Positions 1,785 through 51,400 of a stretch of 64,000 nucleotides of DNA are shown one piece after another. Source of the stretch: Amoebophrya sp. A120 (Eukaryota > Protista > Dinoflagellata); NCBI GenBank assembly GCA_905178155.1, contig CAJINV010000012.1, positions 1,988,492-2,052,491 on the forward strand, in the 5' to 3' direction. Each line of letters opens with the position of its first letter. The stretch's first letter is position 1. The notes under the pieces were generated by a model, which was not told the origin of the DNA, searched no databases, and was given only the letters and a program-made list of their open reading frames with translations. Position numbers and translations under genes: made by a program.

Positions 1785-2437
1785 GCTGTGATGTTTCAAT
1801 CAGACGAGGCGGCGTTGCGAAAACAGGATGTCGTAGCTCTTGCCCCAGCCAGCGCTGAATCTGAGATTTGTACGGGTACACAACGCGATGTACCCGGTAC
1901 CAGCGGCCTTGATGTTCTTGCCTGGGAGATGCAGCTAGTCCCGCTTGTTGTCCATCTGGGCTTGCTTGCGTGATGCTGATGCTACCTGGAGCTGTGGCGG
2001 TACGTTGCCGCAGGCATCATGATTCTGCTAGTCACTACTAGTTGTAAAGTCATGAGCAATTCACTCAATATGCCAGTAGCGGGGCAGAGGCACGTGCAAC
2101 AAGAAGTCGCCGCGCTCTAAAACAAAATCACTCAGCAGAAGGAGAAGGAACTTTATCTTGTCTTCTTCTCTCCTACTTATCCACTCCAAGAGCCAGCAGA
2201 GACCGGCTTCCCACCAGAAGCAAGCTGCTACTTCTCATAAACGTCATCATACAGATACCGAACATCGGATGTTTCTCGATGAGCATAGAGGGAAAAGGCC
2301 CCTGCAAAGAATTGCTTGTCTTGTTGGTCCACCAACATCATGGCCGACGATTGCACTCAATCATGGCTCGGGCGCGAAACTACATTGCAAAAAAATAATG
2401 TTGGGCTTATGGTCCTGCTCCTGCTCGTCGTCGTCCT

Positions 2438-2899
2438 TATGAATGGACAACTTAGAAAAGTAGACCATAAACGACCCTTTGAAATCAAGAAAACAGCTCT
2501 TCGCAAAAAATGACTTTTGATCCGAACTTGTGATTTTTGCATTTGAAAGTTGTAATTTTTCGAGCTGCGATTTTTGCATTTCCGTTTTTCTTTATAAGTA
2601 TTTCGATCCGAAATGTTAATAGTTCAAACCGAAACATCGCATACTTCAAGCCGAGAAACAACTTCTTTTAAAGGGAGAAACTTCAATACCGATGAGGAGG
2701 AACCTTCAATACACAACTACCCGACCTTCGATAAACAACTAACCCGACTTCTTTTTCCTTCAACTTCCACCTTCAATTCCTTCAAGATCACAAGAGCTTC
2801 TTGATCAAAAAACCACACAAAACCACAAAAACTGAGCTCCTCTATGACGACCGGAAATTTCCAAAAGTTGTGGTTTACCGTAGAGCCACAACTTTTCGC
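2438..2899 (+). repeat. Left terminal inverted repeat of the giant element
   Basis: Starts TATGAATGGACAACTTAGAAAAGTAGACC and is the reverse complement of 17906-18367 (2 mismatches seen). Internal repeats GATTTTTGCATTT and CCACAACTTTT; 20-bp tandem duplication at the inner edge (about 2880-2919). Confidence 0.95.
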
Positions 2900-4016
2900 G
2901 TAGAGCCACAACTTTTCGCCATTCTTCATTCCTTTGCGAGACCGACACGACTTTTGCGGGCGCGCATCCGCTTGTTCGATTCAGTGGTTGAATTTCAACT
3001 ATTCAAAATAGTGCTGATGCATTTTCATAATGGAGATGCTCAGATGGCACAAGTTCAGCTCCGCAGCTTGTGCAGCGTCAAATCAAAGTTTTTGGCAATC
3101 AGCGCGCTTCCCGCATCTTCTCCTCAGTGGCGCGACAAAGTGGCTCAGTTCTAGAGAAGAGGTTCTTGCGTCTCAAGAAAAAAGGGCAAAGCACGTTGAT
3201 CGTCAGTAATACGAGACGCCCGAAGAGATGGGCGAAAGTGACAGTAGCATAAGCCACCCATAACGTAGATACAGAGGTATCTACAGGGTGGAAGAAGTGA
3301 AAGATGTAGTTTTTTTGCCTAATGCTGACAGTGCGCAAGCACTGCCAACATCAAGCGAAGAGACGGTGATGCTGCTGGTCGATGTCGTTTGTAGTGCGAA
3401 ACAAGAAAGGCAGCTCAACAAAGAGAGATCACTAGAAATTTATTTCTAAACAGAAAAATATCTTGGATAGTTTATTTTGTAAATATATAGTCTGCGATGC
3501 AATAAACTGGAACATCGCAAACGGTAGAGATGAGGATGTTTTTTTTTCTAAAACAAAAAATAATGAAAGTTAAATCATTAACATTGAAAACGAACTGTAG
3601 CACAAGTAAAAACTGAAGATCCACCTCTACCCGAAGCTTGCTAGTGAAGCTGAAGCACATTGACTCTGGCTCCTCCAACTCGCTCTCGCAAGTGTAAACA
3701 TGCTGACACTTCCCCGCTCTCGATAGCACTAGTACTCGCCAACGAAAGCAATACACCTACGTCTCCTCTTGGGTGGAGCACTTACGTCAGCTTCTACTTC
3801 TACTTCATAAATTGCTAGTAGTAAAAGCAACAGGAAACACCCGCACAGCCACAGATGTGATGCTGATACAGGTGCATGTTGCCAGTGACGACGCCAATAC
3901 TTTCAGTACGGAGGCGACTACAGACGTTGCAACGAAATTTTCGTGGTGACATAGCCAGAGCGAAAGTGAAAATTGCTAGTCTTATAGCCGATCCTTCCCG
4001 AGTTCAACTTAGTTCA

Positions 4017-7000
4017 TCACATCTTGAAGAAATCAAAACCACCGAAGTCATCCTCATCCATAGACGGACCGCGCGAGCGCTTCCCAGACTCCTCTTCGGC
4101 GGGACTCATCGGTCGCTTTGGGTTTTTCTTTGGGCGCCCCTTCGCCTTGGCCTTCGCGTTCGCACCCGAGGACGACGAAGACGAGGACCCACCTTCCTGT
4201 TCGTTGGGGTTCATCAGGTTCTTCTTGTGAAACGGGTTGCTCTCCCCCTCACCGAACGGGAACATGAAGAAGGTCATCCCGTCACCCAGGTCATCCTTCA
4301 CCTTGGCGTCCTCCATGCCCACGAGCTTGTCGTACTCGGTAGTCTGCATCTTCGTGATCGCGTCCTGTTCCGCTTTGGTGGGCGGCTTGTTTTTAGAGTT
4401 CAAGGCCTTCTTGCCGAAGTTCTCGCCCAGGTGGCTGTCGTCGGAGAACGTGTTCTTGTCCAGCGAGCAGAAGGGGTACTTGTAGTACAAGTCAAACGTG
4501 TTTCCGAAGGCGATCTTGCGCGGCTTGAAGATGATGGTCTGATCGACGTAGGCCTTGTTCGGGCGGAACTCCAACACCATGTTGTCCATCTTCAACACGA
4601 AGTCCATGTTCACATCCTCGGCGTCAACGTCCTTGCGCTTCACCAGCTTCGCCGGGACGCGGCACGGCAAGATGAAGGCCTTCTGCGTGTCCGTGGAGCC
4701 GAGGACCCACTCGTTGTCCTTATAAAAAGCGTGGCCGCTCATCAAGTCCTCGCGCTGGTAGTGCTGCTTGTCGAGGTGCGCGATCTCATGCGGGACCTGA
4801 AAAAAATTACATTGTTGGTCAGTGTTTAAAGTTTATGCGTAGGCTTACGCTTTTTACATTACATTCATTGCAGGGCGCTTGCGCATTGAGTTTGCAATAA
4901 CAGTTGATGCTGGCTATGACAATGAATATGACATGAGTATATCTACTGTCTATACCGGAAGCGCGCATATTACATGAAAATGACAATCGCTCTTCATCTA
5001 TACCGGAAACGTCTTCGCCATCGCGCGGACGGTCAAGCACTTGTGCTCCTGGGCCATCTTGATCTCTTTCTCCAACCGCTCGCACTCGGACTTCAGGCGC
5101 ATCTTGCGCTTCTTCATCTTCTCACCCTGCTCATTGCGGGCCAGCATCGCCTTCTCCTCCAGCATCAGGACCGCGTGCTCGTCCGTCTTCTTCCGCTCTT
5201 TGAACCGCGCCTTTTCGTCGATGACACTTTGCGCGATCGCGCGGCGGGTCTCGGTCTTCCAGGACCGCTCGTACGCCGCGAAGGCCGCCCGCAAATCCTG
5301 CATCTCTTTCTTCAGCTTCGCAACAGCGGGGGAAACACCGGGACCGGTGATGACGGCCTGCGCGTCGTTCAACACCGCCAGCGGTCCCTGATCGCCGCAG
5401 CTCAGGATCACGCGCTGCCCGGTCGCCAGATTCACGGCCGGCTCTGGTGTTGTTTTCATTTTAGAAATAAGACTGCAGTTTGTGTCGGTCACTGTCGCTC
5501 ATGATCATGCAAAGGCCAGCGCCAATTTATGATGCTAATCTGCGATGCCTGGAACTCACAGTAAATGCATGCAGATCGGACGCAAAGAAAAAATAGAGCA
5601 CGGGTCTCATGCTCCACCATGTGCAAGGAGGTTTGTCCACACTTATCCATATTGAGGAGCTTCAGGTCGAGTTTGATGACCTGGCGCACTTCCTTCAGCC
5701 GGGCCTCTTCTTTTTTCTTCGCCGCGATGTCCTGGGCGCCGAACAACCACACATCACCGGAATTGAACTTGCCCTCACGCGGGGTCTTAGCAGTGACCAG
5801 CTGTTTGACGTCGGTGATGGTCTGATTTGAGTAATTGTGTTTTGTATAAACGAGTGGATGTGGAAGTGGATGCGGAAATGGAAAAGGAAGTGGTAAAGGA
5901 AATCTAAAACACAATGGACGCTGCATATGAAACCAAGCACGAAGGAGCGTGTAATACTGGCTCTGGTAATGATGCAGATCACAGATGCTATCCCTATATT
6001 TATACTTACGCATGCAGATGTACATGCACAGCAAGAACGATAAGAAAAACGCACCTCGCAGCTCACGCCCTCCTCTTCGAAATGGAAGTCTTTGGCGGCG
6101 TTCCGCGCGGTCTCGGTGATTACCCGCAGAATCAGCTGATTCCAGAAGTCGGTCGCCAGCTTGTCCTTGTGGCAGCTCAAGCGGAAGCAGTTCTGCAGGT
6201 TCATGAGCTGCCCCTTGTTGACGGTGATCCTATTCTCCCCCAAGGTCAACTCGAAGTAGGCGCTGAGGGCGAGGTCCTTCACGGTCGAGTGTTGCCATTT
6301 GATCCCGGAGTCGAGCACTCTCGACCTGTTGTTTGATTTATTCGATTTCGTTTTCAATTTCATTTGCAGTGACGGACTTATTTTCACCTTCACTTTCACT
6401 TTCACTTTCACAACAGCGACAATAGAAATAAAATCATAAGTGATCGAATACCGACTCTGACGCTTTTTGTCGATACTGAAAATACACATACAGAGCATGC
6501 TTTTAGAAAATTGCTTTTGTGTTAGAAAGACTTAGTGTTTGCGTTTAGGTCCAGCGTCAACACATGCAGATGTAGATTGGTCACAGCGTGTCCATCTCTT
6601 TGTGAGTGCGGATCGAAGCTTGGCACTCTCATACATATTTTCTTCCACTGCACCGCGACACTAGCTGCACCGAATAAAAAAGCGCGACGGATCAAATCAC
6701 ATAGACATCTGGACACGGAGACTGAGATGGTGATAAAGTGGCGCGCGTTTATCTAGAAAACAATAACGACATCAAAATACCGCAACTGCGAGGGAAAGTT
6801 CTCTTCGTCACCCTCCTCCTGCTTGCGCCGGACGACATCCGCCCAGTTACAGCTCACCGCTCCCCATTCCCGCCCGCACTGCAAGTAAATTTCGATCTCG
6901 GTCTTCATGCTACCGACGGCCGAGCACTTGCTCTGTGGTGTTGTTTTGAGTTGGAGTCTCAGGTATATGCATCACGAGATTGCTCTTGCAGTTACAGGCG

Positions 7001-10000
7001 GCGAACGTGGAAATTTTCGAACTAAATATGGCACGGATAGAAACTCCATGCTCCTCGAAGTTCAAATGTACACACTGACACGCGACAAAAAGCGCAATTA
7101 AGTTTTGTTTTACCTTGAAGAACTTGAGCTCGTCCATGTCGGAGTCCGGATTGTCTTTTTTGAACTGCAAGTAGGCGGAATGTATCTGAGAAGTTTTTCG
7201 ATGCGTTGTTCAAACGTGACGCTTTCGCATTCCTTATCATTGGCAATAATTGAAAATACTACAGGCACGAGCACACGCATTGTCGCAATGCCAGCCCGTG
7301 GCACGAAGCCCCGCTTTTACGCCGCGATGAAGCGTAAGCTCGCACTGGCACAGCAGCGGAAGATAAAGAAGCCAAATGCAGCTCGCACTATGGCGCAGCA
7401 ACCAGCTGCGCGAAAGGCGATGAAGACAATGAAGAAAGGCGCGAAGGCCCGGCAGATCGGAAAACCGAAACCGCAGCAGCCTGCGCAGAAGACTCACGTT
7501 GTGGATTCAGAAGAGAGAAGCGGAAGTCTTACCATGCAGGACTGCATTCGCTTCGGGCTTCATTTGCAAACTAGTGCGGGCAGAAAATTGGAAGCGGGAA
7601 AACAATATCGCCTCGCGTGGTCAATCGCGTGCCTCACCGGCAGACGCGGTATGGACGTCCGGTGTTTGACCATGGACGACGTACGCGGCGAAGAGATTAG
7701 AATAGGAAATACAAAGACTGCGATCGCGCAAGGAGGGCGCGGCAAGCTAAAATGGGTTCCCATTAAGCCCAGCAAGCAGACGGCAGCTTTTTTGAAGGAG
7801 CGAAGGCGCGCACTACAGGACAAAGGGCTAAGTGGGGAAGATCGCGTGTTTGACTTTAACTACGAAGCCTTTGAAAAAAAAATCCGCGCTGCGCGCGCGA
7901 CGTTCAAGTGCGAAGGGCAGCGGAGCTGCCCCCCGACGCTGATTACCAGCCACACCCCAAGGCGCAGCCTTATTACGCATCTGCACAAGCAGGGGACGGC
8001 GCTTAGCACCATAATGCAAATCTCCGGGCACGCGTGTTTAAGCACTCTCATGCACTATCTAGAACGCGACTACTCATATCAGATCGAAGCCGCTGAGAAA
8101 GTCAAACTCTAGATACAAGAGCCCTCTTGTCGCTTGTTGAAAGAGATGAAGCTGCCACGACGACAATGCGAACAGTAGTACATAGGTGCGCCTCCAGTTG
8201 CGATCTCAGTCTTATTTTTGCGACACATGAATGAAAATTGAAAAGCAGGAAATAAACTATACTTCCGGGTAGACACTCAGTATTTTTTCTGTCATTGTCG
8301 TAGACAATGGAGAATTATTCTCATTTTGTAATCTGAGAAAAGTTCTCAGTAGCGGCTCGTACTCGCGGATCTTCTCGGAGAGGACGGTGAGCCTGATGGT
8401 AGTTTTAGATGAAAACATTACAAGAGGCAAGAATGATAACGGTTTGGATTTGGAGCGAAGTGGGAATTGAATTCGCCGATGAGTGGCCATTACTGAGAGG
8501 TAATAACTCCTGACGCTACATGAACATGTACATCTTCACGAACATAAATTATGAGCACAAAATGAGGCAGCAAAAACAAAAAGTACGTCAATCCCAAGCG
8601 TTCGTAAATGCCCGGCCCACCTTCTTCCAAGAGGAGTTGCTTTGCGGCGAGGGTGGAGTGCCATCCGCTGATGACCTCGAAGGCCGGCTCGACGTTCTCG
8701 TCGTCACTGCTTGTTCCGACCAGGTTGTTGATGCGGCTCGGCTTGATCAGCAACTTTTCCTTTTGTCCGGCGGCTTTAATCTCGTCTTTGTCCGACAACG
8801 GAATCACGACGATATCTGAAGAGGGCGGGGTTGTTGATGGTGATTCCGATTTCGATTTGCTGGCAGAACTACCAACTTTTTTATCATCACTATTACGGCG
8901 GAACGCGGGGAGCGTCATAACGAACTCCCTTAATTTTTGGTGCGCTGCCGCCCGGCGGCGCTTCTTCTGGGTCTGTTTTTCCAGCACCGCTGCGACCTCG
9001 ATATCGCTAGGTGAGAAGTCAACGTCACTGCTCGCGGGGCTGTTTTCGCAACTACCAGAAGCGGAGTCGTCCGACTCGCATGGTGGTGTCGCACTATGCG
9101 AGCCTTCGAAGGCGGGCCACGAGAGACGGCCGTTCTGTTGCTCGCTGAGGTGCTGGAGTGCCATCCTTGTATGGTGGCCGGACAATATGTGGGGCATCTG
9201 GTCAAGCCACACCAGCGGCATCGGGGACTGGTACACACTAGATAACTGCTCATCAGCCCACCCGAAGATGAGGCAGCGCGGCGGGGTAGTGTACACTTTT
9301 TGAAACAAAGCCGATTTGTCGGGGCGGGCAACGATGTTGCTTCGTGGCCTTTTACCGCCCGAAATCATCATGCTCTTGAGGAAACAAACATGCTTTTCCC
9401 GGGCCCGACGGCGACTATCTAACCGGAAATCAAGGAACCCGGGCCACGACAAGGGGTCGCGGATGTCGAAACCGACGGGGAATGGGTCATCGGGTGTACG
9501 GCCTAATCTGAACAGGGCCCGCTCAATCTTGCCGCAAATGTACCAACTCCAATGCTCACCAAAGATGCCTATGGGTGAGAAATTGGGGGCAATTTTGTAC
9601 TTCAGACTATGTCGCTGGCGCAAAATATGGTGGAAGGCGCGGGTAGTTCGAGGGGTACATCTACTGCTATTCGTGGTTGTATTGTGAAAAAAAAGTAATA
9701 TATACCCTTGACTTTGACGTAGTCGCCGCTGGTCATTGCGTCCAGGAGGGTCAAGCAGTGCTGCCAGGAACGGAGGGGATTCCGGCGGGACTCCCCCAGC
9801 TGGCGGAGCGTGGCTTGCAGCAAAATCGCGCCGGCTTTGAACTGCGGAGAGGTGAATCTCATCACGAAGTCCGAGAAGTCCTTCTTCATCATTCCCCCGG
9901 CGTGCCAGCAAGTCATGACCTGCTCCACTTCTTTGGCAGTCGGTAAACCCGCCTTCATCTCCTTGCACAAACCGATGACGGACGTCCACGACACGTTGGC

Positions 10001-10186
10001 ACCGACGGGCAAGACCTGATCGAACTGCGAGTCCGGGTCCAACTTTCCCAACCGCGCGACTTCTTCTTCCTCCTTCAACATCTCCAACAACGAGATCTCT
10101 TTTTCCTTTTCCTTATCGCCGGCGCCGGAAAGCGAGGACTTAGGTCCCGCTGAAGTAGACACTTCAGCGACGGGCTTTTTGCTCAT
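4017..10186 (-). CDS. Transposon cargo gene, multi-exon, with ParB/Srx-like motifs; may be one gene or two
   Basis: Phase-compatible GT-AG chain of exons ending at about 8586, then about 8392-8263, 7185-7114, 6878-6781, 6325-6067, 5821-about 5600, about 5470-5003 and about 4796-4017. Motifs PHILSGHHTRMAL and FEVISGWHSTLAAKQL...LQNENNSPLSTTMTEK. The 5' exon (MSKKPVAE, 10186) junction is uncertain. Confidence 0.6.
7288..8112 (+). CDS. Tyrosine recombinase (phage integrase family catalytic domain) with basic N-terminal tail
   Basis: Full catalytic set in order: LTGRRGMDV (R), NTKT (K), HTPRR (HxxR), ISGH (H), LMHYL (Y). Intronless. ATG at 7288 inside ORF 7105-8112. Confidence 0.9.
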   Translation: MPARGTKPRFYAAMKRKLALAQQRKIKKPNAARTMAQQPAARKAMKTMKKGAKARQIGKPKPQQPAQKTHVVDSEERSGSLTMQDCIRFGLHLQTSAGRKLEAGKQYRLAWSIACLTGRRGMDVRCLTMDDVRGEEIRIGNTKTAIAQGGRGKLKWVPIKPSKQTAAFLKERRRALQDKGLSGEDRVFDFNYEAFEKKIRAARATFKCEGQRSCPPTLITSHTPRRSLITHLHKQGTALSTIMQISGHACLSTLMHYLERDYSYQIEAAEKVKL

Positions 10187-10328
10187 CTTTACACGCTCTG
10201 CACGGAAAAAACCACGCCGCGTGGACAAGATCTACACTAACTCAGACTGATTATCGCTCGCACTGGACTGCGTTTTTGATTGAAAATAAAGTAGTTTTGT
10301 GGAAAAGTAGTGCATTTCCAGAACGTTC

Positions 10329-10481
10329 CAAAAGTGGCCAGATCTCAGAACGAGACTACTTTAATTAAAAATTAATTAATTCTTGTGCTCTGAGATTTTT
10401 TGCATGATATTTTCAGACAAATCAATGATTTTTATTTATTTTTAATTAAAATAATCGCGGTCTGAGATTTGGCCAATTTTG
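10329..10481. repeat. Central AT-rich imperfect inverted repeat (candidate recombination or binding site)
   Basis: CAAAAGTGGCCAGATCTCAGAACGAGACTACTTTAATTAAAAAT ... ATTTTTAATTAAAATAATCGCGGTCTGAGATTTGGCCAATTTTG; arms about 50 bp, spacer about 50 bp. Confidence 0.8.
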
Positions 10482-11769
10482 CATCAACATAAAAATTGCA
10501 TTACTTCAGTCATTTTTGATCTCGAACATGGTTTGGCTCGTGTTGAAACCGACTCCGTTCTCTCCTCATCAGACCGACAAAACGTGCTTGAACAATGTCC
10601 AAACCGACCCCATTTGTGCATGATCTCGCTGCGCGCATGCAGTAATTACGTCTGCTCTCATTCAAATTTCGATCTCGCCGCGCAGCTCGAAGCTCGTACT
10701 TCATACTTCAATTTGTCGCAGAAACAAGCAACGACCCTCGTCCTTTCATCGTATTATCGGCGGGATCATGAGCACCAATACGGGGGTAGAGTGGCAATTT
10801 TTGGAATCTGTGATGCTGCGACCGTTCATTTTACGACCATGGTCTCTCCTTCTCCATATGAACTTCATGAGACAAAAGCGCGAAGATTTGACAAGATGAA
10901 GGAGGTTTCTATGCGGGTAGAAGAGTATCACGTGGTCCATTTTTGCAGATCTTTTTTGTTGGACGAAGATAATCGAGTGTGTTGCTGGAGGAAGATTTGC
11001 TTGCTTCGGGAACTATAGTTGCTGTGCAAGTAGTGCGCGAGTCTTGGATTTTACATACATGATATACCGCGCGCTCTATTTCTATTTCCCTCATTTTTGC
11101 AGCTTCAATGCTTCCCTTAGTTGCGCAAAGCAGCCAGGAGAAGACATCAGCCATATCAAAGTCGGAGAATCATCGCGAGCAGCATTGAACTATTTGGGGC
11201 TGGGTACAAACGCAGTTGGGGCGAGTTTTTTCATAACATTGGCTTTTTTTATCGACGAATGCTGGGCACCATTGCACACACAGGGAGCATATGTAGCAGC
11301 AGATCACTGTCATACTTCTTTTCATTACAAACACAAATACAGAAGGGAGCAACGTCTTCTCTTGGGTACAGCATATGATAATTTTGCCTGCATCAGGCTG
11401 GAGTGCGGGTACTACGTACATGAGCAGGCGATGAATAACGACGGCGCGGGCTAACGGATACGGAACCGAAAGCACTAGTCGTCGACTTCTCGACTAGATT
11501 TCAAAAGACAAGTGCGTCTGATGCTGATTGTGGTGGAAGTGCGCACGCAAGTGCATATCTTTATCTATAATTATACCGCACAAATGAGGAAGCCAAGTGA
11601 TCGCACTGTGTCTGTACCTGCGGGCGGAAGCGCATTTGCAACCACAACCACGTCGCAGATACATGTACGCGCGAATTCGAATTGGACATGAACATGTGAA
11701 ATACAAATACAAAGGGAAACCCAAATACAAATCGGTAGTTACATTACATGCTTTGATTTCTGTACAGGT

Positions 11770-14700
11770 TCACTTGAAACATGTTTTCGCAGATAGAGCA
11801 GACGCTGCTCCACTGCGAAAGAAACGACTACGACGAAACGGCGTCGTCTGCTCGAGTACAAAGTCCTCGCGTTTCATCTCCTTGGATGTTTCCTCCGCCT
11901 CTTCATCATCAGAAGAGTCCGCTGCTAGCCAGTGCTGGGCGTCCAAGTCCTTGGCGTCGTCCATGTACTGGCTTATCACTTTGTAACTTTCAGCCTCCAT
12001 CTCATCCGTTACCATCGGAGTGTCGCCCTGAGTCTTCATGTACTTGAAGACGTGGCGGACGATGTTGTGGCGCGCCAGTTTTACAGACTCCTGATCCAGC
12101 AGCCGGCTCAAAGTTGTTTTCCCGAACGCCTTTCTCGCGTTGGTTTCCGTGTTGGTCCCCGACGCGACTCCACCCTTCAACCCGGAGTCCGACTGTGAAT
12201 CCAACGGCGCTGCGAGTGCGACCGTCTCGCGCCCTCCGTTCTTGTCGGGTACCGCGCCGCCTTTTGCTTTGCGCATTCCCAACGGTAAAGACGCGGCCCA
12301 GGTTGCCGCCTCCGGCCTGTTATTTTAGATTCATGCACGTTTGAATTTTGCAGCGGAGGAGTTCGAGGACGAGGAGGTGGCTGTACTCGAAACAAACCAG
12401 CTCTCATTTTCAAGCGCAGGCCAAGGGCCAAGCGCGAATCATACTAGCACATGCAAACACAAACAAGAAGACAAACTCAAAGGCAAAGAAGTATTTGCAT
12501 ACTAGGAAGTAAGTTGACTGCGTAGCAGTCTGTACTGCCTAGCTCTCGCCAAGTACCTGAATACGAAGTATGCCTCCCGGATTTTTTCTTCCAGCTGCTT
12601 CTCCGGGACGGCAATATGTTGGCTCACCGTTTTCCAAGCGACGTCCCTTGTACTCCGCTCCGCCTTCTTACTGTCCGGACCTTGGACGATTGCCTCGTCG
12701 GTCCGCGCTTTCTCCTTGTTCGCCACGCCGATCTTCGCGAGGGAGATCTTCTGGCTGACCCAGTTTGACGCTCGTGTCGCGAGCACCGGCCCGGAGCACA
12801 GCACGTCCTGCTTCGGGTCTGGGTGGTCGTGCCACCGTATCGCATCGACGTCGGAGATCTTGAAGTCCATCACGAGGCGCTGTCGCGATGGCGCCGGATC
12901 CAGCGCCCACTGCGAAACCGTGCGGCACCGCGTGAAGGGGTGACACACGTACCACTCCGTCATACTCTCGCGCGGAATCTTCTTCTTTACTTCTTCCTCC
13001 CGAATCGCGGTCATCTGTTTATCAAAATCCGAAGAGAGGACCCTGCGCACTTCTAGCACGTGCCCCTTGTGATCCCCCTCCTGGGACACTACGAAGCACG
13101 GCTTTGCCGCATGGTTACCGTCGACCAGGTCCTGCTGGTTTAAGACCGTTTTCTCCGGCAACCGCATGACCAGGTGCCCCAGCTTGCAGATGTTGTTCTC
13201 GAAAAGCGTTGCTTTCTTTCCCGACTTCCAGTGCGGCACACCAGCCGAGAATCCCGGTATCAAGTTGCGCAGAAGTGGCGGAAGAACGAGGTCGCTGTTG
13301 GGCGGGATCGGCCCGCAAAAGATCTTCTGCGCGACCTTGGTTTCGATGTGTTCCGGAAAAGCCGGGTGCTGCTCGAGGTAGTTTTCAAACTCCGTGCACA
13401 AGCGGCCCAACCACGGATGAAGATACTCCTGATCACGGCCCCACAGCTTCTCCATCTCGGTCGGCTGGTATGCTCTCGCCGCGGTAAAACGCTTGTCAAA
13501 CTTTTCCCGGTGCTGGTCTTGGTACATTTTCACAAGCGGATACTCCAGCCCCTCCCCCCGGTTTCTCCTGACCCGCAAACCGTTCCGCTCTGCTTTTATA
13601 TTGGGAGCGTTGTGATGTTCGAATGTTTTCGAGTTGTGCAGACTCTCGGTGTACTGTGTCTGCGGTTGCAAACCCGGCATCAGACACGAGACTATTTCCC
13701 ACAAAAGCGCCGCTGGAGACACTGTTCCGTCCTCCATGACGTGCGTAGCAACAGCATCTTCTTCCGCGACCAAAACAAGAGCGTCGTGACACATCTCCAG
13801 CAGGAAGTCCAAAAAATCATCGCGGTTGTCCGGCTCGGTTTGCAGAAGAGCTTGTGCGATATAGCGCCGCAGCTTCTTGTTGAGCAACATGGTAAGAAGG
13901 TAGGGGAAGTTGTAAAGTTGTATCTCTCGCGACGGCAAGCGAGTCATCGTTTTCATGAACACCGTGAATTCCTGCAAGCAGTCGGGCTTCCTGCATAACA
14001 GGTTCTTCAGCTTCGTCATGATGTCCTCCACGGCCAGCGGCCTGGGGCGGTGTGCGCACATGTCTTCCAGCTTCGTGTTCGACAGCACAGCAGTTGGGTC
14101 GCCCTCGACGCGGAGGGACTGTCTGTGCACTTCGCGGACCGACGTAGCGGCGGACGCAACCGCAACCCAGAAGTCGGGATTACGGGAGTGGAGTCGCGCC
14201 TTCGCGACTGTTGCTCTGTTGGTCTCATCCGCCCGGTCTTCGGGGTTCAACGTGTTGACGCAGGCCACCAACTTTTCCTTGTTTTCTAAAAGTGCCTCGA
14301 GGCACGGCAGCAGCGTCATCCACCGGTGGTCCACCGCTTCGGGCACCTTGATGCCTGCGTCTTGGAGCCACCACTTGTTTGCCCGCTGGATGGCCTTTAC
14401 TCCCTCTACCATTTTGGGGTAGAATACCTCCTGCACTTGTATCACCTCCTTGGTGAGAAGGTGGCACTGATGCAACTGGCAAACCAACTGCACGACGAAG
14501 AACTCGAGGCACTTGACCTTGGACCCCCTCGCCTCCTGTTCCTTCCTCCTCTTCCGCAAGACCTGGCACATGCGGCGCAGCCGACGCATGGCAGACAGGA
14601 TGTCCGCCCCCGCATCGGATGCGATCGCCAGGATGATGATCGGGTCCGTTTCCCATGCTGCTGTTGTCGCTCCTGGTAACATCACACACAACCCCAGAAG

Positions 14701-16655
14701 TGCGTAGATGTCTGCCAACACAGAGTAGTAGCCACCGTCGTGGCTCGACGCCAACGGGATGACGTGCTTGATGTGTAACTTTCCTGTCGTCGGATTTGCG
14801 CGTATCACGAGGGCGTCCAGCGTGAGCGAGTGGCTCTGCTTGTATGGCGTGCTGTCCGGCGCAACGCGCACCACGATGGTGGGCCTGCGGATTTTGCTTT
14901 TCCGAGCTATCACAACCGGGAACGGATTCGCACTGGAAGAGCTGGCCGCGACTTCGACCTTCTTGAGAAACGCCTCCCTCGGCGCCTCCCGGGTTAGCGC
15001 CAGGTCGTCGCGCCCTTCGAAAGAAAGCGCAACTGGACCGCTTTGGTTCCGGTACACGTCGATATCTGAAATGTTCATTGGCAAATAATTCTAGATGAGC
15101 ACGAGACTGCAATAAAAATAACGAACGATAAGACACACCACAGAGGAAAATAATGCAAACTGCAATCAGCACGGCAGTGCGAGATGTAAAGTGTGGAGGT
15201 CGTCGTAGCTCAAAGTCAGACTGCAACTCTCGTCCTAAATCTGTCATGCTCAATTTCCTGCGTATCTAGTGGGAAAAAATACCCGCGATAGCTTCCACAT
15301 CCTGAAGATCGTGCATCCAGTAGACCGCCCGCAGTTCGTCCTCCTTGCGCTCGAGAAACTTCCGGTGCGCATCCTTCCAACCTGCTGCTGCGAGAGTAAT
15401 GGTCTCCCTTTGTTGCTTCGCATCCTCGAACTTTTGGTCGTTGTACAGCACGAGCTGTGCCCGCCGCTTCTGTGTATCCGGAACCTGTTTTATGGTGCTG
15501 CTGGCGAGCGACCCGGACTTCCAGTCATACCCGATCCCTGCCTTCATGATGACTGGATCACCAGATAGTAACTGGCCCGGCAGTGCTTCTCTGTGCAAAC
15601 CCATAAGCCGCGACTTGTGGTCGTATCGCTCCTCGACCTGGAACAGGTGCTGCATCAGCTCGATCTGGTAGCTGTAGTTGTTTTTTGTTTTTCTTTATCT
15701 TTGACATTGACTTTGTCATTGCATATAACTAGGCATCAACCTAAACGCGAGCAGCCGTATACTGCATGCAAAACAAAACTGGGAAGAAGTTGGAATCAAA
15801 ATAAGAATAAGATCGAGACAATCTGAAACGACGTCAAAAAAGGAGACGCAACTTCTGCACCTTCTTCGCCGTCGTCGCGCTGCTCGAAGCCATGCAAACA
15901 GCGACGTAGTCGCGCTTTTCTTCGACCGTGTTGAATTTGTCGAAAACGGCGAAGTCAACCTCCGCCCATTCTTTTCGGATGTCATGCACCTGTTGGGGTT
16001 TTGGAGAAAAGCGTTTGCGTTAGCATTTCCATTTCCATTCCCAAATACAAAGTCTTCGCTCTTCCACATGTTCACGTTGGTCTTTGTTCTACAGTGCTTC
16101 ATGTTCATCTTTGTCCCACATAAGCATCAAGCTTCTGTTTTCATCTTCACTTGAAGCCGAGGATCAAATAAAAACACTCAAACGAGAAACCTTCCGCCTC
16201 TTTGGGTTAAGGGCCGCCTCTGCATCTTCGTCTTGTTGCGCCCGATGCGCCTCCCCCTTTTCCATCGCAAGGCATTTCGCAAACTTTTCCGGAATCATTT
16301 CAAACCGCTTCTGAAGTTCGTCCTCCGCCAGCGCGACCAGCAGCTGCTTGTCCGGGTGTCGAGTAGCAGCAACACCGTGGAGCCGCTTGCACGCTTTCGA
16401 CAGACTCTTGGCGTTCAGCTCTGTCCGCACAAACCCACGCGCTCCTTTCGCGGCGTTCTGTTTTTCAGCCGTCGCATCGCTCGCAGACGTCGATGCGCCG
16501 CTAGCTATCAAAGAATCAAACGCGTCGACGAGGTTCTGCATCGATGTTGCCACTGCGACGTCATGCGAGAAGTCACGCCATGGTGACTGGCCACGCGTCG
16601 GGCGGGCTAATGGTCCGCCCGGTTCCACGGACTTTTTGTCTTTGCCGCGATTCAT
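11770..16655 (-). CDS. hAT-superfamily DDE transposase, multi-exon (core exon in ORF 12502-15084)
   Basis: hAT-like motifs in order: SLTLD (D1), IASDAGAD (D2), CQLH (CxxH), HRWMTL (RW), PQTQYTESLHNS (E). Phase-compatible GT-AG junction into the 11770-12282 exon. Upstream exons (15266-15655, about 15830-16010, 16190-16655) are inferred. Confidence 0.8.
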
Positions 16656-17905
16656 CTTGTGGCGCGACAATGCGTTCGAATTAGGGCGAAAACCAGAGCA
16701 ATCTTCTACACATAGATAGGGACAAGAATGAAAGCCAGCTACATCTACACGCACATTGCTAATAGACTACTGCCATGCGCTTGCGCACTATGTGTGCGCA
16801 TGTACGTGTTTTGAATCTCCCCGAGATTCATCACGCGGCTCCCATGCGCTCTGTTTATCACGCACTCCGTGGCTCATATACGCGCGCTTTCACACTCAGC
16901 TCATTCCTCGCGTGCATCATCGGCGTCACGTGCTGACTGCCAATCGCGCTCCTCATGTATTCGCTTGTTGCATATCTACTTCTCGCTATGAGTATCCGGC
17001 GCTCTCTCGATATCATGGCCGTCGGTTTCACTCTGCGGCTGCTAGGAAAACAAAGCGAAATGGAAATCAGAATCAGTAGAAATCAGAACCGAACCGATGG
17101 TCGGCTGTATCAAAGTGCGCAGCTCACTCATCCGCGCAAACCCGTCGCACAACAACATCACTCAACGCCCTCTACTTCCACACTCACAATAATACCAATA
17201 AACAAAGACCGAGACAGTGCGACCGTGATCGAGATCGTGATCGACACGACATAGATACTACTGACAGACCACATCCTGATCCTCAGTGTGATGTCTGCCT
17301 CAGCTTCAGCTGGAGCTCAACCGTCAGAATCAATTTCGTTTTGAAGTGCGAGTCAGTTCGTCAGCTTTCTTTCACTTTCGCACTCTCTTCATCACCTGCT
17401 GTCGAAGATGGTGCCGCCGTTTTGCTTGGTTCCGATGGGCTGCACGAAGGGAAAGACCAGCACAATGCAACGGCTGAGGAGATGCGTCGCCACGTGATTC
17501 GACCTGCTTGCACTTCGGGCATCCGCCTCGTCAGAGAACCTGAGAAGTGTTGTAGTTTTGTGTGATTTTATTTTTGCATCATCACTGCAAACACAGTTGC
17601 AGGAGTGGAAGCGGTTGCGGTAGCGGTAACATTACTATCACTTTATGTTGTTGAAGTTGATGTTGTAGATTGTATTTGCATTAGTAGATGTAGACGTTGA
17701 TAGAGAATGATGACGAAGCTGAAGAGATGCAAACTCATATAAAACAAAAACAACGCAGCACCTTCTTTTCGCTTTTTTCTTCTCCGGTTTCGTTTGTTTC
17801 ATTTCATTTTCACTTCCGGCACAGAACCGAAAAGCACTTCCTGGATCAAAAGGATGACTTGCAGCAGCTACTTCTCGTAGTGAATGATAAAAAAGGCGGA
17901 TCTTG

Positions 17906-18367
17906 GCGAAAAGTTGTGGCTCTACGGTAAACCACAACTTTTGGAAATTTCCGGTCGTCATAGAGGAGCTCGGTTTTTGTGGTTTTGTGTGGTTTTTTGA
18001 TCAAGAAGCTCTTGTGATCTTGAAGGAATTGAAGGCGGAAGCTGAAGGAAAAAGAAGTCGGGTTAGTTGTTTATCGAAGGTCGGGTAGTTGTGTATTGAA
18101 GGTTCCTCCTCATCGGTATTGAAGTTTCTCCCTTTAAAAGAAGTTGTTTCTCGGCTTGAAGTATGCGATGTTTCGGTTTGAACTATTAACATTTCGGATC
18201 GAAATACTTATAAAGAAAAACGGAAATGCAAAAATCGCAGCTCGAAAAATTACAACTTTCAAATGCAAAAATCACAAGTTCGGATCAAAAGTCATTTTTT
18301 GCGAAGAGCTGTTTTCTTGATTTCAAAGGGTCGTTTATGGTCTACTTTTCTAAGTTGTCCATTCATA
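17906..18367 (-). repeat. Right terminal inverted repeat of the giant element
   Basis: Ends ...CTAAGTTGTCCATTCATA, immediately followed by TSD GTCGTCCT. Confidence 0.95.
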
Positions 18368-18568
18368 GTCGTCCTGGCACGTAAATATTAAAAACATCAG
18401 CAGAAGATATGACGTTCTGCTCGAATCATTTCTACAACAGCTCCTTCCAAGGCAATTGTTCAATATCGACGCAACTACCGACTGTCATTTTTGCTAGCGG
18501 TACCGCCTCCTTGTATGCTGGCTTGACAACAAATAAAACGTGACTCTTGAAATCAAAAGCACCTACTT

Positions 18569-19150: not shown

Positions 19151-22100
19151 TTTGCTTTTTGCTTCGTTGGGTTTCCTTTTGCTTTTTTATTTTGGAGTCG
19201 AAAGTGTGTTCTGCACAAAGTGTTGAGGAGCGACAATGCGTCGCTATCTCGCTTTGTAAGTGACGCTCACTGTGCTAAGCAATTTTCGCAGTTTTTGGTC
19301 TCTCTGATGTTAACTGCACGGCGGGCCGCGTCACAAGAGCTTGTTCTACGGAACGTCTATTCTCATTTCGGTTTGGGCTCTCCACGCAAATATTCTTGTC
19401 GAAGCAGGTGGAAGTTGCCGCGGGTATGGGGCGAGCGTCATCTTCGCGGTGGCCCAGTTTGGGTTTGTAGAACAATGACAAGCCAAGTTGAAACGGAAAC
19501 ACGCACTTCAATCAACGAAAACGCACACGCTTGCTTCGGGGCAATCACCGATACATCGTGTTGCCGACACTCACACTTCTGCTGCATGGCCGTCAAACCC
19601 TCGCTCCCCGACAAGACCGACAATGACAGGGACATGCCCAAACCAATCAAAACGACAAGAAAAGTAGAGGTAGAACAGGAAAAGCACAAGGCAGATACAG
19701 ACACCTCGGTCGGGGCACGAAATTCCAAATTCGACGCAGCCGCCCCGCGCGGAGGAGCCAGTGCTTACCAGCACACAAAGGGAGACCATTCTTGTCGCGG
19801 AGGCAGGGACGAACGGCAAAGGCGTTTCTTCACCTCGTCCTGCCAAGCCCGCCGGCTCTCTTCGGCGTGTGCGGCGGGCCGCCCCGTTGAAAGTGAGGCT
19901 GCAAATAAGAAAGGGTCCGCGCCCTAAGGCCAAAATAACAGGAAGGACCCGGGCCAAGTCCGCGCCCCGAACCGGTGCGCGCCCCTTGATGGGAAACCGC
20001 GGCGCCGGGCGAAATTCCCCAAGAGACAGAGAGAACAAACACAGACCCCGGGGCGCACCTGCGGGCCAATGCCAGCGCGCCAAGGGAGCACATCCATGCA
20101 GGCTGGCAGCCAGGCAGCCGGCGCGCGGCAGGCCGGGCCCGGGCGGGGGGGCGGCGGGCCGGTCGGGCGGACGCGGCGCAGACGGCCGGCAAGCGCGCAG
20201 CTTCTGCGCCGAAATTAGTGGGGGGCCCTTCCTTCGTCCTCTGCTTCGGCGCTTAATTGGCGGACGGAGCTGGCAGCTTCGGCCAAAGCGGCGCCGCCGC
20301 CGTTTCCGCGGATGTTGTAAGGGCAACACCCGCGGAAAGAAAGCTGGGGCACCGGGCCCCAAGCCCAAGCCCTCGTAGCCGATATGGGCCCGCCATGAGA
20401 CAGAAGGGCGCGGGCGCCAAACGCTCGCGGGCGGTGGCGGCCAATCGGCGGAATGGGCAACGTCCTGCGTCAAAGTTGTTTGTCGCACTCTGATGATACC
20501 GCAGCGCGGTCGCCACTGGTATGGTCGAGGGGGGCGCGAGTTGGTTGCCGAAAAGGCGCCACGTTCACGATTTGCGTGCGCCAAAGACTCCGGGCCAACC
20601 TTTGCCCGTGTGTGTCACTGCAGCGGGCGACGTCGGGGCGCCTTTGAATCGCCGGCATTGCAAGCCAGCCTGCCGGCCGGCTCCGCCGGCGGATCTGAGG
20701 AGCCCGCGCGGGGCCTCCGCGGCCTCGGCATTCCGCCTGGCAAGCAGCGCGGGCCCGGGCCGAATGGCCCGGCGAAGCGGGGCACTTGGCGCCCCCCTAT
20801 GGGTAAAACGCTCCCGCGCCAGCGCCATCGCCAAAACCCCCCGGCTCGGCCGTCCACAAATTGCCGACGGCAAACACAACGGCCGAACGGCCGACGGCGC
20901 CGCTCGGATACGGCAAGCCCTCGAGTCCTGCGGCGAAATTACGGGCGGCGCTTTTCAATTCGCTCCCATTGACAAAGAAACGCCCCAAGCTGCAAAGCTA
21001 CACCTGAATGACTAGCACACACCCACCTCGAGTACGAGTACATACTGGCTAGAAGAGAACACGGCTCGTTTTCTGAGGCCACAAATGCGCCGTTTCTTTT
21101 GAGATCGCCTCTGGTGTAAAACAACATTTATCTTCAGCGAGCACATTGTACAAGAACGCACGTCTAATCTGTCACCAGCTGTGGGCACACATCTCGGGTC
21201 GTTTGCAAATTCTAGGGAGATAATTGTACAAATACACACTACTCTTGGTTTCTTGTGAGACTTCTGTAAACGATCAAATAGTAAGCTCAAGTTGTCAAAT
21301 TGTAGCTCAGTAAACTGGTCGAATCACCGTCGGTCTGAGGACCGGCGGAGATTGATCGTACGGAAACGGAAACTGTCACACAAAAGTTTTCAAATAACAT
21401 ATGGGAGGTTTCGTTTGATTTCTAATATTTGCACCGTCGTGCGCTTATCGTGCAATAATCGAAAGAAACATTGGTGTGAAGAATATTCGTCTTGCTATTG
21501 TTCAAGCTAGGAGAGTCGGAATTCTGATTCTGCCGTCGTTGCGCAACGATTTCTTTCGCTGGTCACGTGACTACCGCAGCCATGCTTTAGACGAAGAACT
21601 GCTGGCTTCTACTTCTCACTGCATCTAGTTTTAAAGGTTGCCGGTAGTCCTGTACTTTTCGTTTTTGTTAAGACCTTTACCTTATTTTTCAGCTTAGTTA
21701 GTATCTCTAATTATTCTTCATTACTTTGGAGGCCGTTTAATTTTGTCAGTACAAACTTTCTGCTTTTAGTCCACATACATTTTGATGAAACCCGTTTGCT
21801 AAGATAGTGCTTCTGGAGAAGCAACAACTTGAAGCCTCTGCCGCGTATCTGTTTTTTAGTAATCTGCTAGAGTGTGTATTGTTCGTAATCGTATCAAGAG
21901 CGGTAGAAATAGAATTGAAAGCGATAGCATGAAACTACTACTAGCTCACGAAATTCAAATAGAAGCTCAGGCTCAACACTTCGCCAGCATCGAGTATTTT
22001 TCCTACGGTTGGTTCTGTTTTGATTTGGTACAACTAGCTCATCGAAACTACTGATGATCGATGTTATTTTGCGATCATCATGCGGGTACAACGAATTTCT

Positions 22101-48400: not shown

Positions 48401-51400
48401 CAAATCAGGCACCGGCTGCAGCACATGCATATTCACCCTTGTCAACTACAAAATCTTGTGACCTGCTCCCAATTGCAATTTGCACTACCAACAGAAGTCC
48501 GACACTTTTTTTTCCGGATCATATCCTTCTCGATCCACAAATTAGCCTTTTCCATCACTTTCCGCGGTTCGTCCATCAGAATGTTCAGTTTTTTGCAACC
48601 CGTAAACGCTTTCGTAACTTCGTCGAAACTCACCGTCGCTGCGTGCAACTTTTCCTCCAGCGCGTCCAGTGCAAGCTGCTTCGGCTCCTCGACCTTCAGT
48701 AGCTGCTCCGCCTGACTGACATCGCCCCCACAGAGTTTCAACCCGGCAATGGCTGATTTCAATTTTTCAATGTTCAGCGGCTTCGTCTGCAGCACGAGAT
48801 TCAACATGCTCTCTGCCTTCTGTTTGTTCTATCCTGTGCAAAAGTATCGCACTCCCACTCGTATTGCAATCATGCATTACAAATCCCTGTTCCTACCTAA
48901 GCAGGTAATTCCGCATTACAAACTTCATTTCTCATCATGCTGAGGAAATTTGTAATGCATTTATATTAGGGGTGAAAAAAATCCATTCCGAGCCCGGTTC
49001 CCAAAATGTTTGCTGAAGTAATTCTTGCAAGGGATGAAAAGTCGATAGGGCCCCGCTTCGCATTCGAGGAGCAAAGCCAAGCACTTTGCGCGATCTGTGT
49101 GCGCGAGCTGTTGCAATGCGGTTGGCGAGACCGTACTCATATCACAGCTTCACTTTGCATGCCGTCGCCGATGCTGTGGCTGTAGTTTGTAAAGCGCCCC
49201 CCGTCGAGCATCAAAAAACACGAGCTGCGACCATTTTGACAGCCTTTTCCTACCTTTCACCGTTTCGCGTACATTTGCAGGTATTCAATTTTCTGCGCAA
49301 ATTTGTTTGCTCTACTCCTTCAGCGGTGTCCGACAGAAGTCCGGAAAACGCCGAATCCTATTGGAAATTTGTTTGTTGGACCCACTTGTGGGACTAGTTC
49401 AATTCTTTCAAACTTCAGCTGAAGCTCAAATTTGACTTAAAGCTTCAAGTCAAATTTGAACTTCAACTGAAGTTTGAAAGAAATTTGCAAGCTCTGCAAG
49501 TCACAGAGTGTTGCGAAAGAGCGGGAAACGATGATAAAACGCTCCCAGCTCCTTTTCCGCCCCGAAAGGCGCACGATCACAAATGAAGGTCCGCAAAAAG
49601 GTTCAAAAAATCAAATCGCTACTTTGCAGCGCGAACGCGCTCACGGAGCCGAGCGTCACAAACTGCTGCTCGTGTCTTCTTGCGCAGATGCCTTTTTTCT
49701 GGCCAGGCTTCAAACATTTTGGGAGCCGTTGAGCGGATGGATTTTTTTGAGCCTTAATTATACGCGTGCGTGTGCGATACATCTTTTGCAAAGCATATGT
49801 TCTGAAACGCGTCAATTTTGTCCAGAAATTCCCGTTTATCCGGATCCTCCTTCTCCAATTTCTCTACTTCCTGCTGCAGCTCCTGCACCTTCGTATGAAC
49901 TGCAAAAGTATCGTACTCGTATAAATGCATTACAAATTTCCTCAGCATGAGAGATAAAATCTGTAATGCGGATTAACCTTAAGAAAAGGATTTGTAATGC
50001 ATGACTGCAATACGAGTACGATACTTTTGCACAGGATACTTCGCTTGCGCACACAGCTCCTCCAGTTTCGCGCGCTTCGCCATCCGGGCCTTCGCCTGGT
50101 CGTACACCTCTTTCACGTGCTTCATCGCGTTCGCCGTTCCGCCCTGGGAGGAGGAGGGCGAAGTTGTTGTACCTCCACCCGTATGAATTGCAAAAGTATC
50201 GTACTCGTATAAATGCATTACAAATTTCCTCAACATGAGAGATAAAATTTGTAATGCGAATTTCCCTTAAGAACAAGGTTTGTAATGCATGACTGCAATA
50301 CGAGTACGATACTTTTGCACAGGATAACCCGTAGCCTGTTGCACCAGGTCGAACGCTTTCAAATTTTCCGCTTTCCGCACCACTTGTTCGAACTTCTGGA
50401 ACAGTGATTTCAGATTCTCTATCCACTGCAAATATGTCTGGGTCTGGAAGATGTCATGCTGGGAAACTAAGGGCAGGGCGTCCCTTTGTAAATTACGTCG
50501 ACAAACTCTTAACCGCGTACCCGGTAAACTCCAAAACAGAAATTTTGAACAGCGTGATTTCTACCGAGAGACAACAACCGAAACTCCTGGGACGGCTGCG
50601 ACGTGAGTAGGTTGTTATCTAGGTAGAAATAACTCTGTGCAAACTCCCTGTCTCAGCACCGAGGGAACCAAAATAAAAAGTAAAAGGGTCTGGAAGATGT
50701 CATGCATATTTTGCATGACCGATGATGCCTGCAATGCATGACCTAGCATTACAGATTTTCAGAGGGCTTCCTGATACGTATTTCGCATGAGAAATGCCCT
50801 CTCCGCGTAGCACTACCGGGACTTCTCTTCCTGGTCATGCAATACAGGTTTTCTTCGAATCGAAAGACAGCAACAGCATCACAAGTTGCAACCTTCCAGA
50901 CGTCCAGGGATATTTGCATTCGATATTCTCAGCGGACGACCCAGCACCCGTATCGTGCTCGAAGTCGTCACAGGCGTGGCAAGCTTCGTCGATGGCCGCG
51001 TGCAGTTCCCGAAGTTCTTTCAGCTTTTCTTGACACTCCACGTACACCGGGTCGCTTTCGATCTCGATCTCCTGTTCTGCCGCAGCCTTGGCGTGGGTGA
51101 GGGCCTGCTCAATCTTTTCGAAGTTGTTCGAAAGCAAGGCCTGCTTCAGTTTTTCGACCAACGCCTCTTTGCTGTTGTCCTCCGCAGAAATTTCGATGTC
51201 GTCCCCAAAATCGTCGTGGTCTCGCAGCGACTTCCGGGAGTGCCTCGCCGCGGTCTTCCCCTTGGAGGTTTTCGCGGCGGCGGCCTTGGATTTCGACTTC
51301 GGAACGGACGGTTTTTCGCCCTTCGGCTTGATTTTCGTCTTCTTGGCCACCGCCGTCGCCTCGTCCACATCAGTGGAAGATTTGTCATCCTCGGCAGCGA

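Follow-up and report, generated by a model that had tools for sequence, protein, structure and literature searches.

An AT-rich inverted repeat near the middle of a giant Amoebophrya transposon, a candidate binding site for the adjacent ParB-like protein

The window analysed here, a stretch of 64,000 nucleotides from the dinoflagellate Amoebophrya sp. A120 (GenBank assembly GCA_905178155.1, contig CAJINV010000012.1, positions 1,988,492 to 2,052,491 of the forward strand), contains a giant DNA transposon with long terminal inverted repeats (TIRs), whose genes and sites are collected in Table 1. Its target-site duplication can be read in two ways, as 5 bp with one mismatch or as a perfect 8 bp (2430-2437 and 18368-18375) within a GTC microsatellite. 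The former is the likelier reading, because run X7 has a contig in which 2435 is followed directly by the letters from 18371 on, so that the element and 5 bp are missing, and because small elements with the same end letters are flanked by 5-bp duplications. Run X7 comes from another study and its RNA nature is a guess; the join may come from an allele without the insertion or from splicing of all 15.9 kb as an intron, for which GA...AG on the minus strand is one possible splice register, and the same run also contains a 185-bp interior piece (3244-3427). Run X1 may itself have supplied the window DNA and is not independent of it. There the element interior forms one 15,066-bp contig at a depth of 42, with 46.5 in the flank and 124 in the outer TIR, a difference that points to one further outer-TIR copy elsewhere. 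This extra copy, the third in all, covers the outer 346 bp (2438-2783) and has another flank and another continuation; it is either a solo TIR or a part of a sister element. Short pieces of other X1 contigs match the element at window positions 4166 and 15701 and then diverge, as possible relatives of two element genes. No tRNA or tmRNA gene was found. The literature searched holds no description of this element family, and the supplements of PMC7789003 and PMC12130899 may list such families.

Table 1. Features of the giant element and of its central inverted repeat (positions in the 64,000-nt window)
Feature	Position	Strand	Remarks
Giant TIR DNA transposon	2438..18367		15,930 bp; TAT...ATA ends; one interior copy in run X1
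Left target-site duplication	2433..2437	+	5 bp, one mismatch vs 18368-18372
Left TIR	2438..2899	+	462 bp; 3 mismatches vs right TIR
Right TIR	17906..18367	-	462 bp; counterpart of left TIR
13-8-13 site, inner edge of left TIR	2863..2896	+	12/13 symmetric arms, 8-bp asymmetric spacer
Mirror 13-8-13 site, inner edge of right TIR	17909..17942	-	12/13 symmetric arms
Tyrosine recombinase	7288..8112	+	274 aa; R / HxxR / H / Y residues present; PF00589 E 1.5e-8
Further predicted exon, ParB-like gene	8260..8410	-	profile E 2e-8; tblastn matches from P0007, P0008, P0018
Predicted exon with ParB-like motif SGWHSTLAA	8587..8819	-	placed by eye; no match from AT5.2 tail profile
Predicted exon 1, ParB-like accessory gene	9707..10186	-	profile of three AT5.2 homologue tails, E 7e-11
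Fifth TCTGAGAT motif copy, partial	10239..10246	-	about 55 bp upstream of ATG at 10186
Left arm, central inverted repeat	10329..10379		43/51 bases match right arm
Inner converging TCTGAGAT pair	10389..10417		7-bp spacer, centre 10403; only candidate recombinase core at central repeat, 8/13 symmetric
Right arm, central inverted repeat	10431..10481		43/51 bases match left arm
Main exon, putative DDE transposase	12502..15090	-	D68, D155, CxxH 200-203, RW 252-253, E478 (858-aa query numbering)

The main exon of the putative transposase has 11 homologues at E values up to 0.001, and all ten that were looked up are proteins of Amoebophrya AT5.2 or cluster with one. C200, H203 and R252 are invariant in the ten rows of the alignment, W253 and E478 are present in at least 90% of them, and D68 and D155 each occur, as judged by eye, in 7 of the 10. 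The CxxH and RW motifs are typical of hAT-type enzymes, and an atlas search gave hAT/DUF659 leads at 0.85-0.86, under 0.9. Neither Pfam nor, for its profile, the PDB sequences gave a match, a word-indexed protein search found nothing, a single-sequence model (pLDDT 36) had only generic helical matches, and no stretch of the alignment was conserved enough for a locus scan. From its motifs the exon would encode a hAT-like DDE transposase. Duplications in the hAT superfamily are otherwise 8 bp long. Among hAT families, the hAT5 group with its 5-bp duplication (PMC12730594) offers the closest likeness noted, in the probable duplication length as well as in the CxxH and RW motifs, from which the present protein is set apart by the missing Pfam hAT match and by atlas leads of that height only. 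In AT5.2 the recombinase g2071 and the transposase g2073 are near-consecutive in the gene numbering, and this suggests that the pairing of the two enzymes could be a family trait.

The window is also rich in small inverted-repeat elements of 115-305 bp that carry the same end letters TAT...ATA as the giant element and are introner-like, one at 815-1074 and about 25 sites in 22467-62228. An exact 5-bp duplication flanks 22 of the 41 candidate pairs, a list that includes nested and false pairs, three more have 5 bp with one mismatch, and none has a duplication of 6-10 bp. As the end letters and, probably, the duplication length are shared, this transposase family may move the small elements, with the giant element as their autonomous partner. 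Farhat et al. did not find a general transposase for Amoebophrya introners (PMC7789003). The introner-like repeats, together with the names of the homologues, would by themselves make a parasite of the Amoebophrya type the likely host.

The tyrosine recombinase has three homologues, two of them from Amoebophrya AT5.2, and its catalytic residues are invariant in their alignment. The modelled fold is much closer to IntI4, XerA, XerH and Cre (Z 13-14) than to protelomerases (Z 5.5-6.7). A pattern search for relatives gave 595 candidates in metagenome contigs and another 59 in viral ones, but no confirmed relative. Both TIRs carry at their inner edge a site of two 13-bp arms around 8 bp; among the 47,670 windows of this arm-spacer-arm form that the element contains, these two score highest. 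The TIR identity ends 3 bp past the site, and two other X1 contigs (13,177 and 656 bp) match the element, among the matches listed, over a 37-bp stretch with this site only, near the contig starts and with 4 and 5 differences. The site is singled out because the TIR identity stops at it and because these contigs share it alone; its symmetry by itself is not unique, as scores of 12 or 13 are also reached at two loci outside the element, by 4 of the 143,970 windows there. On the host side, a palindrome at 49384-49501, a hairpin with 59-bp arms and no spacer, includes a 13-8-13 window at 49426 with perfect symmetry, and another window, at 20304-20337, scores 12/13. About 550 bp inside the left TIR site is the second most AT-rich 150 bp of the window (3430-3590, GC 0.247), with no strong inverted repeat.

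The recombination sites loxP and FRT have 13-bp arms, and the 2-micron FRT lies inside long inverted repeats. The TIR site, not the central repeat described below, resembles loxP and the yeast 2-micron FRT in its 13-bp arms and 8-bp asymmetric spacer, the centre of loxP being 8 bp long (PMC2847244), and differs from them in an unrelated sequence, in its place at the inner edge of chromosomal TIRs and in its status as a candidate site. The element's tyrosine recombinase likely acts at these TIR-edge sites rather than at the centre, and its action there would lead to inversion or exchange of the interior. Among the Paramecium elements, long palindromic TIRs go together with a tyrosine recombinase, and the one element that lacks the enzyme lacks such TIRs as well (PMC3464196). 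The Tec1/Tec2 elements of Euplotes and Sardine and Thon of Paramecium carry Tc1/mariner transposases and measure about 5-7 kb, whereas the present element, of 15.9 kb, has a CxxH/RW transposase, a probable 5-bp duplication and a ParB-like gene; the accounts consulted mention no central repeat in any of them.

A metagenome scan with the TIR-site pattern returned 106 loci. Comparison with the element by blastn, and with the recombinase, the transposase and their homologues by tblastn, gave no match for any of these loci, and they were dropped as unrelated hairpins. One of these hairpins (L002 and many other loci of the scan) recurs in dozens of gut-metagenome contigs, and a second is found in several Ga0209783 and Ga0209145 contigs, often near contig ends; they are probably terminator-like or dispersed bacterial repeats and show no likeness to the element.

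Next to the recombinase, on the opposite strand, lies the gene that starts with the ATG at 10186. In three AT5.2 gene models (P0007, P0008 and P0018) the transposase runs straight into a segment homologous to this gene. Its assignment to ParB comes from one atlas search with a relative, P0007, in place of the window gene itself: positions 1240-1400 have neighbours at 0.94-0.95, among them one ParB/Srx cluster and another cluster in which 35% of the members carry PF02195. The features shared number 144-153 of 256, fewer than the 170 that true family members with such scores typically have in common. Pfam, NCBIfam and PHROGs gave no ParB match for the window ORF or for any of the three AT5.2 proteins, and profile-library scans of the gene, its 3' exons being unplaced, found no helix-turn-helix domain. 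Of the 16 ORFs scanned, with exons taken separately, none was recognised as ParA or as another segregation partner, and a word-indexed search of longer proteins with exon 1 returned nothing. In canonical ParB the helix-turn-helix is the parS-binding domain, GxxRxxA is the CTP motif, and the protein spreads from its site (PMC13495010). The window motif SGWHSTLAA has Ser in place of the Arg of GxxRxxA, which is also absent from P0018, whereas P0007 and P0008 have SGSHRxxA, which fits. On these likenesses the gene appears ParB-like rather than a demonstrated CTP clamp.

Several observations on the structure of this gene can be added. An open stretch inside its presumed first intron (8820-9706) holds a second ParB-like motif near 9180, which suggests an exon duplication or an alternative exon. 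The ORF at 5695-6531 has no match from the AT5.2 tail profile, and its alignment scores are equalled by 1 of 1000 shuffles against P0007 and by 43 of 1000 against P0008; given this weak likeness to the P0007 tail, it is possible that an intron of the ParB-like gene holds the recombinase gene in antisense orientation. At 4017-6531 and 6910-7209, downstream of the recombinase and on the minus strand, several exon-like ORFs have no family match.

The central inverted repeat lies upstream of the ParB-like gene, within the 1,583 bp that separate the ATG of this gene from the end (11770) of the last ORF on the transposase side, with the left arm 143 bp from the ATG. The initial annotation, made from the sequence alone, had described an AT-rich inverted repeat with arms and spacer of about 50 bp each, a third copy of the motif TCTGAGAT in the spacer and a position that separates the transposase half of the element from the recombinase and cargo half, and all of this is borne out. 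The arms are inverted copies without gaps around a spacer of 51 bp, the centre falls at 10405, the 150 bp here, with a GC content of 0.24, are richer in AT than any others in the window, and the third copy of the motif is at 10389, with a fourth, degenerate one at 10417 on the minus strand. The pattern TCTGA[GA][AT] has 5 copies in 314 bp, where 0.19 are expected: one per arm, two converging in the spacer and one at 10246.

The central inverted repeat is a real feature. Its score of 31 makes it the sole local inverted repeat of at least 14 in the 14,972-bp element interior, 200 dinucleotide shuffles of the 310 bp around it reached at most 18, and no score above 9.5 was found in nine other non-coding stretches of the element. 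DNA folding gave z = -5.8, with none of 200 shuffles equally stable. The central-repeat pattern had no match in the viral contigs searched, and its sequence is unrelated to that of the TIR site. Two candidate identities of the region were set aside: that of a TIR copy, where the alignment is gappy and AT-rich (score 37, as high in 1 of 300 mononucleotide shuffles), and that of a protelomerase (hairpin telomere) site, where the palindrome is interrupted by the 51-bp spacer.

As to its occurrence elsewhere, a search with 10050-10800 at 80% likeness covered the 264,029 contigs (105 Mb) of X1, which can drop records and rare variants, and its sole match was the element's own contig, with no joints or loose ends. 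Runs X3, X8 and X9 had no match to the same stretch, no second copy exists elsewhere in the 64-kb window, and the X1 contigs that carry the TIR-edge site lack the central repeat at 80% likeness. Nor did the X1 contigs, from which rare variants drop out, give any sign of an inverted spacer. As far as the window and these contigs show, the central repeat is not a dispersed MITE, an outcome on which the initial annotation had made its functional readings depend. That annotation had also asked about conservation in sister copies; no other X1 contig matches the repeat at 80%, but the apparent sister elements are diverged throughout their interiors, so this is a weak test.

The central repeat sits close to the middle of the element. 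The element midpoint is 10402.5, which confirms the earlier claim of an agreement within 3 bp (2.5 bp), and the distances from the repeat centre to the two TIR-edge sites are 7,509 and 7,504 bp. Under a uniform model the chance of such centring is 3e-4 for 2.5 bp and 0.013 for 100 bp, in a post hoc test with one element. A rough centring is expected because the gap upstream of the ATG divides the element into two halves of similar length, one with the transposase and the other with the accessory genes, and this gene layout accounts for it to within a few hundred bases and no finer. The last few bases of the agreement hang on a recent-looking 20-bp tandem duplication directly after the left 13-8-13 site, just inside the TIR, which the right side does not have; if it is discounted, the repeat is about 12 bp off the midpoint. 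The base-exact match is probably a coincidence, as the initial annotation had allowed. An origin of the whole element by fold-back was rejected, the identity along the mirror diagonal, outside the TIRs and the centre, being 0.24-0.25 on average and 0.33 at most.

What, then, could the central repeat be? The pattern that it fits best, at 143 bp upstream of the ATG, appears to be that of the red alga Bostrychia, in which giant Plavaka transposons have arrays of inverted repeats beside ParB-like PAG3 genes, proposed to be their binding sites (10.1101/2025.02.11.637652). Sola1-1, a giant element of Ectocarpus, likewise carries a ParB-like gene (PMC12477816). The common ground is a giant eukaryotic DDE transposon with a ParB-like accessory gene and, in the case of Plavaka, inverted repeats that adjoin it. 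The differences are that Plavaka, as described in that report, has tandem arrays, as opposed to one inverted repeat with 51-bp arms here; that no oxygenase or methyltransferase domain was recognised here and a tyrosine recombinase is present; and that the transposase is hAT-like instead of EnSpm or Sola. The central repeat is a single-copy motif array and, by this analogy, possibly a binding site for the adjacent ParB-like protein and then probably the operator of its promoter, a reading that we put forward tentatively and rate somewhat short of an even chance. A dimer of the accessory protein would recognise the symmetric motifs, regulate its own gene and possibly coat the element, as has been proposed for PAG3, while the place of its promoter in the gap between two similar halves would bring the repeat near the middle.

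The operator reading gains from the fact that the repeat and the motif array are far above chance and unmatched in the nine other non-coding stretches, from the homology of the neighbouring gene to the ParB-like AT5.2 segments, from the precedents in Plavaka and Sola1-1 and from the better candidate target that the TIRs offer to the recombinase. It is weakened because the profile libraries give no ParB match, the Arg of the CTP motif is absent and no helix-turn-helix was identified, as well as by the lack of a match to the repeat in any other X1 contig at 80% likeness. The initial annotation had offered a res-like site, a parS-like site, an origin or a promoter for the cargo gene; of these, the parS-like or promoter option is the one that has gained, through the ParB-like nature of the adjacent gene and the published precedent and despite the missing Arg, and the other two have lost ground.

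The best of the competing explanations, which we nevertheless consider improbable, is that of a res-like site, in which the inner pair at 10389-10417 would be the crossover core and the outer motifs accessory sites, and in which cointegrates or dimers would be resolved as in the IRS/TnpI system of Tn4430. Like that transposon, the element combines a tyrosine recombinase with an internal cluster of short motifs; one motif is present four to five times, with two copies that converge on a 7-bp spacer, an arrangement that resembles the IRS with its four motifs sharing 9 bp (PMC2847244). The recombinase of the element has its catalytic residues, and the Tec recombinases have been proposed to resolve transposition intermediates (PMC3212892). 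In the Tn4430 IRS, as described, the core is perfectly symmetric and the accessory direct repeats are on one side, whereas the core here is 8/13 symmetric, a value equalled or exceeded by 351 of the 47,670 element windows and well below the TIR sites, and the outer motifs are on both sides. The outer arms are much too widely spaced, at 51 bp, to frame a core, and the TIR site, which marks the end of TIR identity, is common to two other contigs among the matches listed, the central repeat, at 80% likeness, to none. Transposition of the hAT type is, moreover, by cut-and-paste, without the cointegrates that a resolution site would serve.

That the repeat is an orphan, an old MITE-like insertion upstream of the gene that is centred by chance, is to our mind more doubtful again. 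The size of about 130-150 bp, the AT-rich interior and the imperfect arms would fit such an origin, the genome is full of small inverted-repeat elements, and the unit 10341-10469 lies between two direct copies of the palindrome TGGCCA (6 bp, or 5 bp with the boundary drawn differently), in the manner of a target duplication. However, the symmetry runs on past TGGCCA for 5 of 6 bases, so that the hexamer reads as arm sequence, the ends are unlike those of the local small elements (TAT...ATA), the motif is found in the spacer and outside the unit (10246) as well, and neither the window nor, at 80% likeness, the contigs of X1 hold the second copy that a MITE family would provide.

A central organiser of synapsis, where protein loading, DNA bending or extrusion would unite the two 7.5-kb arms in the manner of the strong gyrase site of phage Mu, is compatible with the operator reading and, taken by itself, carries little conviction, marginally less than the orphan insertion. 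Its appeal is in the nearly equal distances to the two TIR sites, in the finding that Mu needs its central site, a cis site in the middle of a large transposon, for efficient assembly of the transpososome (PMC10052514), and in the spreading of ParB proteins from their site (PMC13495010). The Mu site is described as a gyrase site of which the right arm is essential and which is not a palindrome. The evidence here comes from one element, to the exact centring of which the 20-bp duplication contributes, and the Arg needed for clamp sliding is missing in the window copy. The Mu mechanism uses gyrase supercoiling, which is not known from eukaryotic chromatin.

The chances are slim that the repeat is an ordinary promoter or transcript-end region with host factor sites or an RNA hairpin and no role for an element-encoded protein. 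It is AT-rich, intergenic, close to the ATG and downstream of a transposase gene on the same strand, and its long hairpin fold gave matches to miRNA precursors in Rfam; these matches, the only ones, reach 25-38 bits, far below the gathering thresholds of 90-211, and the nine other non-coding stretches of the element hold no comparable repeat. Very unlikely is a replication origin of an excised circular or linear form, for which the AT-richness, the repeated motifs and a central position suited to bidirectional replication could be cited, and against which stand cumulative GC and AT skews that do not switch at 10.4 kb, the lack of a recognised replication protein among the 16 ORFs scanned and the lack of a circle junction among the X1 and X7 matches listed, though a stretch with one TIR could show such a junction only poorly.

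A broader proposal, to which we assign a low probability, would join these parts into a transposon family with a plasmid-like toolkit: the ParB-like protein would load at a point equidistant from the ends and zip the 7.5-kb arms together, as does the central site of Mu, the recombinase would flip or swap the interior at the loxP-shaped TIR sites, and the hAT-like transposase would be the missing mobiliser of the TAT...ATA introner-like elements.

Should the central repeat turn out to be a decayed insertion or a promoter only, it would be ordinary and the element would still be of interest; in fact, the whole element, with its hAT-like transposase, its probable 5-bp duplication, its tyrosine recombinase, its ParB-like gene and its introner-like end letters, is more interesting than the repeat alone. 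For the tyrosine recombinases of TIR transposons such as Tec, Sardine and Thon, the accounts consulted identify no target so far, and the 13-8-13 site at the TIR edge provides a candidate that can be put directly to the test. Reports of giant eukaryotic transposons with ParB-like accessory genes are recent, and the DNA targets in these reports are only proposed; the element offers one compact candidate site. Lastly, a divergent transposase family, missed by Pfam, shares its end letters and probably its duplication length with introner-like elements that lack a known general transposase, and may be the family that moves them.
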